A stretch of 64,000 nucleotides of DNA from Enterobacteria phage GiZh. The stretch lies in the sequence record NC_054903.1. One strand, written 5' to 3'. Shown here in pieces: positions 2,942 through 8,594 of this stretch. Positions within the stretch are counted from its first letter, which is position 1. Every line of letters starts with the position of its first letter. The notes under the pieces were generated by a model. That model saw only the letters and a program-made list of their open reading frames with translations, had not been told where the DNA came from and ran no database searches. A program made the translations under genes and the position numbers.

Positions 2942-4057
2942 ATGGAAAAATTTATGGCAGAGTTTGGACAAGGATATGTCCAAACGCCATTTTTATCGGA
3001 AAGCAATTCAGTAAGATATAAAATAAGCATAGCGGGTTCTTGCCCGCTTTCTACAGCAGGACCATATGTTAAATTTCAGGATAATCCTGTAGGAAGTCAA
3101 ACATTTAGCGCAGGTCTTCATTTAAGAGTTTTTGATCCTTCTACAGGAGCATTAGTTGATAGTAAGTCATATGCTTTTTCGACTTCAAATGATACTACAT
3201 CAGCTGCTTTTGTTAGTTTCATGAATTCTTTGACAAATAATAGAATTGTTGCTATATTAACTAGTGGAAAGGTTAATTTTCCTCCTGAAGTAGTATCTTG
3301 GTTAAGAACCGCAGGAACGTCTGCTTTTCCATCTGACTCTATATTGTCAAGATTCGACGTATCATATGCTGCTTTTTATACTTCTTCTAAAAGAGCTATC
3401 GCATTAGAGCATGTTAAATTAAGTAATAGAAAAAGCACAGATGATTATCAAACTATTTTAGATGTTGTATTTGACAGTTTAGAAGATGTCGGAGCTACCG
3501 GGTTTCCAAGAAGAACGTATGAAAGCGTTGAGCAATTCATGTCAGCGGTTGGTGGAACTAATAACGAAATTGCGCGTTTACCGACTTCATCCGCGATAAG
3601 TAAACTATCTGACTACAATTTAATTCCTGGTGATGTTCTTTATCTTAAAGCACAGCTATACGCCGATGCTGATTTACTTGCTCTTGGAACTACAAATATA
3701 TCTATCCGTTTTTATAATGCATCTAATGGATATATTTCCTCGACACAAGCTGAATTTACTGGGCAAGCTGGGTCATGGGAATTAAAGGAAGATTATGTAG
3801 TTGTTCCAGAAAACGCAGTAGGATTTACGATATACGCACAGAGAACTGCTCAAGCGGGACAAGGCGGTATGCGAAATTTAAGCTTTTCTGAAGTATCAAG
3901 AAATGGCGGCATTTCAAAACCTGCTGAATTTGGCGTCAATGGTATTCGTGTTAATTATATCTGTGAATCTGCTTCACCTCCGGATATAATGGTACTTCCT
4001 ACGCAAGCATCGTCTAAAACTGGTAAAGTGTTTGGGCAAGAATTTAGAGAAGTATAA
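2942..4057 (+). CDS. 35: long tail fibre hinge connector gp35
   Basis: 371 aa (T4 gp35 ~372 aa); position between 34 and 36. Confidence 0.85.
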   Translation: MEKFMAEFGQGYVQTPFLSESNSVRYKISIAGSCPLSTAGPYVKFQDNPVGSQTFSAGLHLRVFDPSTGALVDSKSYAFSTSNDTTSAAFVSFMNSLTNNRIVAILTSGKVNFPPEVVSWLRTAGTSAFPSDSILSRFDVSYAAFYTSSKRAIALEHVKLSNRKSTDDYQTILDVVFDSLEDVGATGFPRRTYESVEQFMSAVGGTNNEIARLPTSSAISKLSDYNLIPGDVLYLKAQLYADADLLALGTTNISIRFYNASNGYISSTQAEFTGQAGSWELKEDYVVVPENAVGFTIYAQRTAQAGQGGMRNLSFSEVSRNGGISKPAEFGVNGIRVNYICESASPPDIMVLPTQASSKTGKVFGQEFREV

Positions 4058-4062
4058 ATTGA

Positions 4063-4089
4063 GGGAGCCTTCGGGTTCCCTTTTTCTTT
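4063..4089 (+). terminator. hairpin (GGGAGCC-UUCG-GGUUCCC) plus T-run after gene 35
   Basis: stem-loop with UUCG tetraloop followed by tttttcttt. Confidence 0.5.
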
Positions 4090-4096
4090 ATAAATA
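4089..4096 (+). promoter_or_regulatory. T4-type late promoter TATAAATA upstream of gene 36
   Basis: exact TATAAATA ~24 nt upstream of ATG at 4120. Confidence 0.5.
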
Positions 4097-4119: not shown

Positions 4120-4785
4120 ATGGCTGATTTAAAAGTAGGTTCAACAACTGGAGGCTCTGTCATTTGGCATCAAGGAAATTTTCCATTGAATCCAGCCGGT
4201 GACGATGTACTCTATAAATCATTTAAAATATATTCAGAATATAACAAACCACAGGCTGCTGATAACGATTTCGTTTCTAAAGCTAATGGTGGTACTTATG
4301 CATCAAAGGTAACATTTAACGGTGGAGTTCAAGTTCCGTATGCTGTAAACAACACAAACCTATGCGGTGTTTATCCAGGTAACGGTGATAATGCTACTTT
4401 TGCTGTAGCAAATATCGATATTGTTTCGTGGAATGGTATTGGTTTTAAATCATCACAAGGTTCAGCAGCTCGAACTGTTGTAATTAATGCACGTAATGGT
4501 GATATTAGTACAAAAGGCGTTGTGTCGGCAGCAGGTCAAGTAAGAAGTGATGCGGCTGCTCCTATAGCAGCGAATGACCTTACTAGAAAGGACTATGTTG
4601 ATGGAGCAATAAATACTGTTACGGCAAATGCAAACTCTAGGGTGCTACGGTCTGGTGACACCATGATAGGTAATTTAACAGCGCCAAACTTTTTCTCGCA
4701 GAATCCTGCATCTCAACCTTCACACGTTCCACGATTTGACCAAATCGTAATTAAGGATTCTGTTCAAGATTTCGGCTATTATTAA
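4120..4785 (+). CDS. 36: long tail fibre distal subunit gp36
   Basis: 221 aa, same as T4 gp36; synteny. Confidence 0.85.
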
Positions 4786-4793
4786 GAGGACTT

Positions 4794-7700
4794 ATGGCTA
4801 CTTTAAAACAAATACAATTTAAAAGAAGCAAAACCGCAGGTGCACGTCCTGCTGCTTCAGTATTAGCCGAAGGTGAATTGGCTATAAACTTAAAAGATAG
4901 AACAATTTTTACTAAAGATGATTCAGGAAATATCATCGATTTAAGCATTTCTGCTGGTGGTAATATCAGTGGTAATATTACTCAAACTGGTGATTATACA
5001 CAGACTGGAAAATTTAATTTAATTGGTCCGCAAATTGTAGAAAGCGGTGGATATATTGAGTTTAATTATCGTACTACTGGAAGTGGGGCTTGGTCCGGTC
5101 AACATACTGCGAAAGCTCCAATTTTTGTAGATTTAAGCTCAGCTACTTCCACATCTGAATATAATCCTATAATTAAACAGCGCTTTAAAGATGGAACTTT
5201 TTCATTAGGTACTTTAGTTTCTGAAGGTTCGTTGAAGATTCATTATATCAATGAATCTGGCGATTCGAAATATTGGACGTTTCGACGTGACGGCGGATTT
5301 ACTGTTGACGGTGGAGGTTTAGGAGTATCAGGAGGTAGTATAACTACATCTGGAAATATTGCAGCTCTCGGAAATATTACTTCGCCTCAGATTAATACTA
5401 AAAATATTATTTTAGATACAAAAGCATTTGGACAATACGATTCGCAGTCATTAGTTCAATATGTTTATCCTGGAACCGGTGAAGAAAACGGTATAAACTA
5501 TCTTCGTAAAGTTCGAGCTAAATCAGGCGGAACTATTTACCATGAAATCGCTTCAGCTCAAACCGGTAAAAATGATGAAATTTCTTGGTGGACCGGAAAT
5601 ACACTTACTACTAAATTAATGGGTCTTCGTAATGATGGCGCAATGGTATTACGTCGTTCACTTGCTATTGGCACAATTACCACTGACGAAAATACTAACA
5701 ACTATGGTTCTCCTACTCCAATGGGAGAAAGATATATTGCTTTGGGCGATGCTGCCACTGGTTTAAAATACATTAAGCAGGGCGTTTATGATTTAGTAGG
5801 TAATTGGAATTCTGTTGCGTCTATTACTCCTGATAGTTTCCGTAGTACTCGTAAAGCGATATTTGGACGTTCAGAAGACCAAGGCGGAACCTGGACAATG
5901 CCTGGAACGAACGCTGCCTTTTTATCAGTTCAAACACAGGCTGATGAAAACACTGCTGGAGACGGCCAGACGCATATTGGCTATAACTCAGGCGGAAAAA
6001 TGAACCACTATTTCCGTGGTAAAGGCAAAACTAATATTAATACTCAGGAAGGTATGGAAGTTAATCCGGGTATTTTGAAATTGGTAACTGGCTCTAATAA
6101 TGTAATGTTTTATGCTGATGGCGGTATTACATCTGTTAAGCAGCTTTCAATATATAATGGCATATATTTAGCAGCTAATAATTCTACTGCTGGGCTAACA
6201 TTCGCTCCAACTACTACAATTGATGGCACTAAGCAAATTTTGTGGGAAGGCGGTACTCGTGCTGGTCAGAATAAAAGCTATGTAACTGTTAAAGCATGGG
6301 GTAATTCATTTAACGCATCTGGCGATCGTAATCGTGAAACGGTTTTTGAAGTAGCTGATGGACAAGGATATTATTTTTATTCACAGCGTGTGGCTCCAAG
6401 TGGCTCTGAAACTACTGGGCCTGTTGTAACCCAGTTCAATGGACAAGTTAATGCTAGAGGAAGTATTATTACTGACGGAAGTTTTAAAGTTAATGGATTA
6501 AGCACTTTAGTCGGTAATGTTACCATGTCTAATGGTTTGTTTGTCCAAGGTGGTTCTTCTATTACTGGACAAGTAAAAATTGGTGGAACTGCTGATGCAT
6601 TAAGAATTTGGAATGCCGAATACGGTGCTATTTTCCGTCGCTCAGAAACAGCATTACATATTATCCCGACTCCTAAAGATGCCGGTGAAAGTGGTGGAAT
6701 AAGTAATCTCCGCCCACTTAGTATTAGTCTTAATAATGGTATGGTACAAATGCGCCATTCTGTTACGTTAGGCGATGATGGCGCTGGCGGTAATATGATT
6801 ACTGTGGACAACGATACCAAACTTGTTGTTGTTACTAGTCATAGTCGTATTTCTCCTAATTACCGTATGCAGGTAGGACAAGCAGCTTATATTGATGCTG
6901 AATGTACTGACACCGTTCGCCCGGCTGGCGCAGGGTCTTTTGCTTCACAAAATAATGAAAACGTTCGTGCTCCGTTCTATATGAATATTAATCGCACAGA
7001 TACAAGTACTTACGTTCCTATTTTAAAACAACGTTATGTTCAAGGAAATAGCTGTTATTCTTTAGGTACTTTAATAAATGGCGGTAACTTCAGAGTTCAT
7101 TATCATGAAGGTGGAGACGGAAGTTCAACAGGCGCAATTATAAAAGATTTAGGCTGGGAATTTACACGTTCTGGTGATTTTATATCTCCTAAGCGCATTT
7201 CTGCTGGGGGTTCAGTTTATTTAGGTACAGACGGTAACATTACTGGTGGTTCTGGTAATTTTGCCAACTTAAATAGTACAATTGAATCACTTAAAACTGA
7301 TATTGTTTCAAGTTATCCTATTGGAGCTCCGATTCCTTGGCCTACTGATACACCTCCTGAAGGTTATGCCATAATGGAAGGTCAAACATTTGATGTTGGC
7401 TTGTATCCTAAGTTAGCTGCGGTGTATCCTTCCGGCTCTCTGCCTGATATGCGCGGGCAAACTATCAAGGGTAAACCATCTGGGCGTGCTGTATTAAGTA
7501 CAGAAGCAGACGGTGTTAAGTCACATAGTCATAGTGCAAGTGCATCAAGCACGGATTTGGGTACTAAGACCACATCAAGCTTTGACTATGGTACTAAGAC
7601 GACAAGTAGTTTCGACTATGGTACTAAGACCAGTAATAATACTGGTGCTCATACGCATAGTTTGAGCGGTTCCACAAACACCGCCGGTGCGCACAGCCAC

Positions 7701-8015
7701 ACAAGCGCTCTTTATGCGGGAAGTAACAACTCTCCTGGTACTGGTTCTATAAGAGGATCCGCCGGTGGTGGTAATACGCTTGGAACTTCTTCTTCTGGGG
7801 CACATTCGCACTCTATATCTGGTACTGCTGCAAGCGCAGGCGCTCACGCGCATACTGTTGGTATTGGTGCTCATACCCATACTGTAGGTATCGGTGCTCA
7901 TACCCACACGGTAGCAATTGGCTCGCATGGTCATACTATCACTGTAAATAGTACAGGTAATACAGAAAACACGGTTAAAAACATTGCTTTTAACTATATT
8001 GTTCGTTTAGCATAA
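4794..8015 (+). CDS. 37: long tail fibre distal subunit / receptor-recognising gp37 (T4-type, His-box tip)
   Basis: 1073 aa; C-terminal HxH repeats ([16 protein letters not shown]...) typical of T4-type gp37 needle tip; synteny. Confidence 0.9.
7560..7640 (+). repeat. tandem 30-bp coding repeat (~2.7 copies) in gp37 tip region, encoding [10 protein letters not shown] units
   Basis: ggtactaagacNacaNcaagNtttgactat repeated head to tail. Confidence 0.8.
7845..7935 (+). repeat. tandem ~30-bp coding repeat encoding AHTHTVGIG His-box units in gp37
   Basis: ggtgctcatacccaYacNgtaggtatc repeated. Confidence 0.75.
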
Positions 8016-8042
8016 GGAGAGGGGCTTCGGCCCCTTCTAAAT
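8014..8042 (+). promoter_or_regulatory. gene 38 translation initiation region: SD (AGGAG) separated from AUG by a GGGGC-UUCG-GCCCC hairpin
   Basis: SD at 8014-8018 is ~24 nt from ATG 8043 with a stable hairpin in between; T4 gene 38 is known for a structured split RBS. Confidence 0.5.
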
Positions 8043-8594
8043 ATGAAAATCTATCATTATTATTTTGACACTAAAGAATTTTACAAAGAAGAAAATTACA
8101 AACCTGTTAAAGGTCTCGGTCTTCCTGCTCATTCAACAATTAAAAAACCTTTAGAACCTAAAGAAGGATACGCAGTTGTATTTGATGAACGTATTCAGGA
8201 TTGGATTTATGAAGAAGACCATCGCGGTAAACGGGCTTGGACTTTTAATAAAGAAGAAATCTTAATAACTGACATAGGAAGCCCGGTTGGTATAACTTTT
8301 GATGAACCCGGCGAATTTGATATATGGACTGATGATGGTTGGAAAGAAGACGAAACATATAAACGCGTTTTAATTCGCAATAGAAAAATTGAAGAATTAT
8401 ACAAAGAATTCCAAGTTTTAAATAATATGATTGAAGCTTCTGTCGCGAATAAAAAGGAAAAATTCTATTATAAAAACCTTAAGCGGTTCTTTGCTCTTTT
8501 AGAAAAGCATGAGCATTTAGGTGGTGAATTTCCTAAATGGCCTGAAAAAGAACAGAAGCCTTGGTATAAGCGTTTATTCAAGCATTACGTATAA
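8043..8594 (+). CDS. 38: tail fibre assembly chaperone gp38 (T4-type)
   Basis: 183 aa, same as T4 gp38; sequence recognised; follows gene 37. Confidence 0.85.
   Translation: MKIYHYYFDTKEFYKEENYKPVKGLGLPAHSTIKKPLEPKEGYAVVFDERIQDWIYEEDHRGKRAWTFNKEEILITDIGSPVGITFDEPGEFDIWTDDGWKEDETYKRVLIRNRKIEELYKEFQVLNNMIEASVANKKEKFYYKNLKRFFALLEKHEHLGGEFPKWPEKEQKPWYKRLFKHYV

Follow-up and report, generated by a model that had tools for sequence, protein, structure and literature searches.

A probable split ribosome-binding site of the T4 gene 38 type at a tail fibre gene junction, and related hairpin arrangements in other phages

Results and discussion

A probable split initiation region upstream of gene 38

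We analyzed the junction of the tail fibre genes 37 and 38 within a window of 64 kb, which is the whole stretch of phage DNA under study. The site most probably represents the orthologue of the split (noncontiguous) initiation region of T4 gene 38, in which a hairpin folds the Shine-Dalgarno sequence (SD) to a workable distance from the AUG. An SD more than ~15 nt from the start, the lack of a canonical SD, an intervening stable hairpin, orthology to T4 and a conserved structure were found together. The literature on T4 gene 38 has already established the split reading, and the element described here is the orthologue of that site. The split ribosome-binding site (RBS) as such is known, and the finding, though real, is an ordinary one.

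The anatomy, stability, orthology and conservation of the split site were demonstrated. The UAAGGAG SD shares bases with the stop codon of gene 37. At 23 nt from the AUG it would be too far away on a linear mRNA. The 16-nt C(UUCG)G hairpin directly after the GGAG should be stable enough to stay folded on the 30S subunit. It would loop out the surplus RNA and leave an effective SD-AUG distance of 7 nt, and gene 38 would thereby be translatable from the polycistronic late message. A hairpin-dependent boost of initiation, taken over from the T4 literature, would be expected in this phage as well. The features of the junction are as follows.

8013..8015, + strand: TAA stop codon of gene 37, end of the ORF 4794-8015, shares bases with the SD; annotated as gene 37 in T4
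8014..8019, + strand: SD AAGGAG (UAAGGAG including U8013), 23 nt 5' of the AUG, read from the sequence
8020..8035, + strand: hairpin A-GGGGC-UUCG-GCCCC-U, based on folding, pair probabilities and covariation
8036..8042, + strand: spacer UCUAAAU, 7 nt, AU-rich and without an SD, equal to the effective SD-AUG distance after folding
8043..8594, + strand: gene 38, T4-type tail fibre assembly chaperone of 183 aa, with the ATG at 8043-8045 as sole possible start

Composition of the gene 37/38 junction

The ORF of gene 37 (4794-8015) encodes the long tail fibre distal subunit with 1073 aa, and tail collar and tail fibre repeat domains were found in its last 271 residues. A Pfam search with gp38 yielded no family at 1e-3. 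The identity of gp38 (183 aa) was taken from its 97.8% identity to T4 gp38; its N-terminus MKIYHYY is common to the relatives.

The RNA of the junction reads UAA-GGAG-A-GGGGC-UUCG-GCCCC-U-UCUAAAU-AUG. Within it, UAAGGAG spans 8013-8019, AGGAG 8015-8019 and GGAG 8016-8019. The first-pass annotation had recognized the AGGAG but placed it one base off at 8014-8018, and its distance of ~24 nt to the AUG has to be corrected to 23 nt, counted on the linear RNA from G8019 to the A of the ATG at 8043. With the hairpin folded out approximately 7 nt remain, and the gap between the stop codon of gene 37 and the start of gene 38 is 27 nt. The GGGGC-UUCG-GCCCC hairpin that had been reported between both elements was indeed read at 8021-8034, with the stem arms at 8021-8025 (GGGGC) and 8030-8034 (GCCCC) and the C(UUCG)G tetraloop at 8026-8029. 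An optional sixth pair (A8020-U8035) extends the stem to 6 bp.

The same annotation was also right in regarding this SD as the sole SD-like sequence of gene 38, as no GGAG, GAGG or AGGA was present at a usable distance from the ATG in 8020-8042. No in-frame ATG, GTG or TTG was found between the in-frame stop at 8013 and position 8043. An alternative start of gene 38 with a conventional SD, which had been named as a possible objection, was looked for and rejected: the interval 8013-8043 held no in-frame candidate, and the scan of the window gave no conventional SD. The sequence around the AUG of gene 38 is strongly AU-rich.

In this phage the stop codon at 8013 and the ATG at 8043 lie in the same frame, 30 nt apart. 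That ribosomes pass from gene 37 into gene 38 by readthrough or bypass was considered and rejected, because the stop-to-ATG distance varies from 29 to 34 nt across the relatives and the frame is thus not conserved. The same-frame position is seemingly without significance.

Stability of the hairpin and its place within the window

Folding of the RNA from 8005 to 8050 (46 nt), as the first-pass annotation had proposed, gave -15.6 kcal/mol (z = -3.06), and one in 200 dinucleotide shuffles was as stable. The predicted probabilities of the five core pairs ranged from 0.985 to 0.997 in three sequence contexts of 76-231 nt, and that of the A8020-U8035 pair from 0.63 to 0.70. The hairpin 16-mer alone folds with -11.2 kcal/mol. 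With core pairs of at least 0.985 and a predicted effective spacing of 7 nt, the earlier proposal that folding yields a normal SD-AUG distance was borne out by the prediction.

Furthermore, weak extension helices were predicted. The pairs A8018-U8038 and G8019-C8037 had a probability of ~0.3-0.46, varying with the context, and an outer helix of CAUA (8011-8014) with UAUG (8042-8045) one of 0.36-0.80. These helices pair the 3' half of the SD (A8018, G8019) and the AUG, and they are absent in LF82-41 and ESCO47. They should melt on binding of the 30S subunit, since they consist of A-U and G-U pairs. Since initiation requires their melting, the fold could exert a partial, mild inhibition. The outer CAUA/UAUG helix was rejected as a part of the element; it is missing in LF82-41 and ESCO47, and both of its strands are under coding constraint.

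All ATG and GTG starts of ORFs of at least 50 aa on both strands of the window were scanned for split sites, defined by the lack of an SD at -4 to -16, an SD farther 5', a GC-containing hairpin in between and a residual spacing of 3-12 nt. A single match was obtained, the ATG at 8043. An Rfam scan of 7800-8300 at E <= 10 gave sub-threshold chance matches only and no family.

The hairpin itself belongs to the T4 intercistronic C(UUCG)G class, characterized by a C-G-closed UUCG loop, a GC-rich stem and a position 3-5 nt past a stop codon. UUCG-loop hairpins with a stem of at least 5 bp are about 5-fold in excess in the window (20, compared with 3.7 +/- 2.0 in dinucleotide shuffles). On both strands of the window, GC-rich C(UUCG)G hairpins were located at 4061, 8019, 13924, 16364, 21873, 33053, 39297, 46171, 48343, 54478, 55748 and 58115. 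Of 13 GC-rich CUUCGG hairpins, 11 start within ~7 nt past a stop codon or overlap the stop slightly. The SD of the next gene is located 3' of all the other hairpins of this type; a 5' SD is present only at gene 38. The hairpin at 46171-46154 on the minus strand (AAGGGGC-UUCG-GCCCCUU) has the same sequence as the gene 38 hairpin.

A different combination was observed at 4061-4096 (+ strand) between gene 35 (stop at 4057) and gene 36 (ATG at 4120). Here, a 9-bp CUUCGG hairpin (GAGGGAGCC-UUCG-GGUUCCCUU) is followed by UUUUCUUU and then by TATAAATA (4089-4096), identical to the late-promoter consensus of T4. The site resembles a terminator paired with a promoter, and the SD of gene 36 is located 3' of both. 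At the gene 37/38 junction, TCTAAATA at 8036-8043 deviates by one mismatch from the same consensus. A late promoter at this position was rejected, since its transcripts would begin inside gene 38 and the motif is not conserved in Mosigvirus-type junctions.

Orthology to T4 and conservation among T4-type phages

The region 7850-8250 matched the Escherichia phages TH09 and vB_EcoM-S1P5QW at 100% identity; for many genomes of Tequatrovirus, T4 isolates among them, the identity was ~97%. The window can be assigned to this genus of T4-type phages. The T4 genome record (AF158101.6) names the flanking ORFs gene 37, for the long tail fibre distal subunit, and gene 38, for the distal long tail fibre assembly catalyst. 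The junction of this reference, TAAGGAGAGGGGCTTCGGCCCTTCTAAATATG, carries one C fewer in the 3' arm of the hairpin than the window. The linear spacing is consequently 23 nt in the window versus 22 nt in T4, and one synonymous-type change is located upstream.

The 3' arm of the reference T4 sequence (AF158101.6, locus L002, 217-242) is the short GCCC, whereas the window shares GCCCC with most relatives. For other T4 records the alignment covers 191 nt in place of 190 nt, and they may therefore carry the additional C. The difference is either a strain polymorphism or a sequencing error of the reference, and it changes the quoted spacing of 22 nt to 23 nt.

For the comparison, junctions of genes 37 and 38 were collected from 19 loci, which comprised Tequatrovirus, Mosigvirus, Gaprivervirus and Moonvirus as well as two IMG/VR contigs. 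A search of viral contigs with gp38 gave 2 matches, and the diversity was sampled from GenBank phages. In total, 13 distinct junctions were obtained: 11 T4-type variants, Citrobacter phage Moon and a Yersinia phage.

The 5-bp core was paired in all 63 scorable cells of these 13 junctions. Pair 4 occurred in four forms, namely G-C in the T4 type, A-U in Mosigvirus and phiD1, C-G in LF82-41 and ESCO47, and G-U in ESh33. When the 3' partner was slid by one to three columns, only 34-75% remained paired. The covariation score was reached by 2 of 500 column shuffles, which is modest evidence, since there is a single covarying position and the phages are close relatives. The UUCG loop was altered in three lineages (UUCA, UUCU and UUAU).

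The constancy of the spacing is more telling than the covariation. Among the 11 T4-type variants the linear distance between GGAG and AUG ranged from 22 to 27 nt versus 6 to 10 nt after folding. GGAG was kept in all 11, and the stem directly adjoins it in 10. The 3' spacer differs by lineage (UUCUAAAU, UUCUGAAU, UUUUUAUAAU and UUUAUAAUA).

In E. coli O157 typing phage 6 (KP869104.1, locus L010, position 227) the altered loop UUAU-G creates an in-frame ATG within the loop. In the deposited annotation gene 38 starts at this ATG and measures 570 nt instead of 552 nt. The loop start is probably a mis-annotation owing to the unusual RBS.

The same hairpin in other arrangements

The hairpin downstream of gene 37 is not restricted to the split arrangement. 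The following types of junctions were found.

T4-type phages: stop/SD, hairpin, AUG (split)
Citrobacter phage Moon (gp38 homologue with 34% identity): UAA-UAGAUU-GGGGC UUCG GCCCC-UCU-GAGGA-AACU-AUG; hairpin kept, SD 3' of it at normal spacing
Phage T2 (unrelated gene 38, which encodes an adhesin): UAA-A-AGAGGGC UUCG GCCCUCU-AAGGA-UUUUUA-AUG; hairpin kept, SD 3' of it
Yersinia phage vB_YenM_22 (50 kb): identical hairpin followed by UUUAUUUUUUU (U7); no gene 38
stf/tfa homologues of lambda and P2: stop/start overlap TAATG; no hairpin

The position of the SD is complementary in these types. T4-type junctions carry GGAG 5' of the hairpin and none 3' of it, whereas Moon and T2 have none 5' but GAGGA or AAGGA 4-6 nt before the AUG. 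The hairpin goes with the 3' end of gene 37 even in phages whose types of gene 38 are unrelated. The split RBS is one of two ways to fit the initiation signals of the next gene around it.

In the 50-kb myovirus vB_YenM_22 (MT366932.1, locus L013, 301-395) the final ~50 nt of gene 37 are matched at ~87% DNA identity, and the GGGGC-UUCG-GCCCC hairpin is identical. Its hairpin looks like a terminator, and the shared segment suggests that the C-terminus of the fibre and the hairpin move together between unrelated phages. Taken together, the arrangements provide evidence that at the 37/38 junction the hairpin would predate or outlive the split arrangement, which is a mildly new point.

A 3'-end role of the hairpin for the message of gene 37, as an exonuclease barrier or a weak terminator, is probable in addition, in agreement with the first-pass annotation, because T2 and Moon keep the hairpin after gene 37 with the SD downstream, the hairpin of vB_YenM_22 resembles a terminator, and the CUUCGG hairpins of the window form a class that mostly follows stop codons. 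Such a role would explain why the hairpin is kept even where the SD lies downstream. The GC-rich stem-loop of a terminator was found in the window, and the U-tract in Mosigvirus-type relatives, with U5 after the stem (UUUUUAUAAU), and in vB_YenM_22; the G2469 record annotates the hairpin as a putative terminator. The tail of the gene 38 hairpin in the window, UUCUAAAU, lacks at least 5 U in 8 nt, and a simple terminator scan made no call. A literature search for T4 3'-end or Term-seq mapping found no paper. Our inference is that the hairpin acts chiefly at the 3' end of the gene 37 cistron, as an exonuclease barrier or leaky terminator, with the SD of gene 38 placed on its 5' side in the T4 lineage; this placement would work because the fold restores the spacing.

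Alternative explanations

It is unlikely that the hairpin serves solely as a 3'-end element of gene 37, with an incidental position between SD and AUG, and that gene 38 starts unaided, e.g. by S1 binding to the AU-rich spacer or the early codons. The post-stop position of 11 of the 13 GC-rich CUUCGG hairpins in the window would fit this explanation, as would the very AU-rich AUG region, the hairpins of T2 and Moon that are kept after gene 37 without a split RBS, the hairpin with U7 but no gene 38 in vB_YenM_22 and the terminator annotation of G2469. However, all T4-type junctions have the same GGAG directly 5' of the stem but differ in the spacer, and every phage without an upstream GGAG has a downstream SD. 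Moreover, the folded spacing stays at 6-10 nt as the linear spacing drifts, and the T4 site is treated in the literature as a functional split RBS (PMC3014915, PMC7297116).

Still less likely is a translation of gene 38 mainly by termination-reinitiation. Here, ribosomes from gene 37 would be held by the SD and restart at the AUG at 8043, with the hairpin shortening the path. The overlap of the SD with the stop codon makes such a mechanism possible; the UAAGGAG overlap is also present in most other split junctions found, and the homologous stf-tfa junctions of lambda and P2 (loci L014 and L015) show the classic coupled arrangement TAATG. On the other hand, the free-standing SDs after the hairpin in Moon and T2 show that de novo initiation is viable at this junction, and reinitiation could operate alongside the split-RBS model without excluding it.

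Finally, the hairpin might act as a down-regulator that keeps gp38 low relative to gp37 by partial termination and partial occlusion of the 3' end of the SD and the AUG; the chaperone is required in lower amounts than the fibre, and the weak helices do pair A8018/G8019 and the AUG (8043-8045) with probabilities of 0.28-0.80. This is very improbable, as the extension helices are absent in LF82-41 and ESCO47 and the effect described in the literature is positive (PMC3014915, PMC7297116).

We therefore retain the split RBS as the preferred reading of the site. For the window itself it matters little. The site represents a textbook exception to the SD-spacing rule and is helpful for annotation, since gene callers and annotators mishandle it, as illustrated by the terminator-only label in G2469 and the loop start in KP869104.1.

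Recurrence of the arrangement at other junctions

The combination of stop/SD, hairpin and AUG was also observed between nrdB and denA. The junction of phage T6 (NC_054907.1, locus L264, 91-123) reads UAAGGAG-UGGGCC GCAA GGCCCA-UUUUAUU-AUG, and that of Klebsiella phage KP179 (locus L265, 91-123) UAAGGAA-AGGGGC UUCG GCCCCU-CUUUAUU-AUG. In T-even and Jiaodavirus-type phages (also loci L032, L058 and L134) a stop/SD overlap, a GC hairpin and a 7-nt U-rich spacer precede the ATG of endonuclease II. The nrdB-denA junction may represent a third split RBS in T-even phages; a shallow literature search found no papers on a split site of denA.

IMG/VR viral contigs were furthermore scanned for AAGGAG-N1-3-GGGNCUUCGGNCCC, which gave at least 120 loci (L023-L142). 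In 92 of the 120 matches listed an ORF of at least 50 aa starts 0-12 nt past the hairpin, compared with 10.8% for random positions of the same loci. None of the 42 group representatives of the matches listed had an SD in the spacer. The downstream proteins showed 42 different N-termini among the matches listed, and mostly the TAA of the upstream ORF overlaps the SD. Many non-T4 contigs combine AAGGAG and a CUUCGG hairpin with a hairpin-to-ATG spacer of 5-11 nt (e.g. L033 3377-3420, L046 2851-2885, L026 4283-4315 and L076).

According to PHROGs, the commonest junction among the matches listed leads from a small phrog_18004 protein to the T7-like tail tubular protein A (phrog_394). Further junctions among them were that of an SSB-like protein with a Cas4-like exonuclease downstream and, in T4-like contigs, that of nrdB with denA downstream. 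The split arrangement occurred once in an unbiased sample of 121 GGGGNCUUCGGNCCCC hairpins (1/121), and SD and start were both located downstream in 63 of the 121. Given this single case together with the many matches listed, the design is rare but recurrent.

We see about an even chance that stop/SD, tetraloop hairpin and an AUG after 5-11 nt form a recurrent modular phage design that extends beyond the T4 genes 38 and 25 (nrdB-denA, phrog_394 and others) and lets an upstream 3'-end hairpin coexist with a translated gene behind it. The hairpin, which is also present in T2, Moon and a Yersinia phage, would then be the older element of the 37/38 junction, and the split RBS would have been fitted to it secondarily. 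The recurrence elsewhere is a mildly new point.

Comparison with known systems

Like a Rho-independent terminator, the element consists of a GC-rich hairpin which ends a highly expressed cistron, with U5-U7 in relatives. In the window, however, the stem is followed by UUCUAAAU, and transcription has to pass the hairpin to reach gene 38. The stf-tfa junctions of lambda and P2 have the stop/start overlap TAATG and no hairpin, whereas the codons of the 37/38 junction neither overlap nor abut.

In the split RBS of E. coli thrS (Sacerdot et al. 1998, in PMC7297116) the elements are likewise parted by a stable stem-loop that is tolerated by the 30S subunit. There, however, the spacing of the SD is normal, and the hairpin, which is also a protein operator, lies between the SD and a single-stranded enhancer farther upstream.

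The discovery of the C(UUCG)G tetraloop in 1988 came from T4 mRNA (PMC4371310). The intercistronic C(UUCG)G hairpins of T4 share the C-G-closed UUCG loop, the GC-rich stem and the position after a stop codon with the hairpin described here, but only at gene 38 is the SD located 5'.

In the T4 genes 38 and 25 an extended, suboptimal SD-AUG spacing is made functional by an intervening RNA structure (PMC3014915, Uzan and Miller). The fold shortens the spacing from 22 to 5 nt in gene 38 and from 27 to 11 nt in gene 25 (PMC3014915). Mutations that destabilise the structure lower initiation, which was credited to Nivinskas et al. 1999 with gene 25 as the proof (PMC3014915). Gene 25 (26-25 junction; Nivinskas 1999; Malys and Nivinskas 2009) resembles our site in that its SD lies 27 nt from the AUG and a hairpin shortens this distance to 11 nt. 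It differs in the gene and the hairpin sequence and is located outside of the window; there, the mechanism was tested by mutation and DMS probing, and mutations of the stem reduced translation.

The closest counterpart is gene 38 of T4 itself. The RBSs of T4 genes 38 (Gold 1988) and 25 (Nivinskas 1999) are described as carrying a stable hairpin between SD and start codon and are termed "noncontiguous" or "split" (PMC7297116, Aseev et al.); for gene 38 a positive effect of the hairpin 'was suggested' (PMC7297116). That a structured split RBS is known for T4 gene 38, as the first-pass annotation had stated, is thus in agreement with both reviews (PMC3014915, PMC7297116), and the junction in the window is orthologous to that of T4. 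Both share the same 37/38 junction, the stop-overlapping UAAGGAG, the GGGGC-UUCG-GCCC(C) hairpin and the downstream gene.
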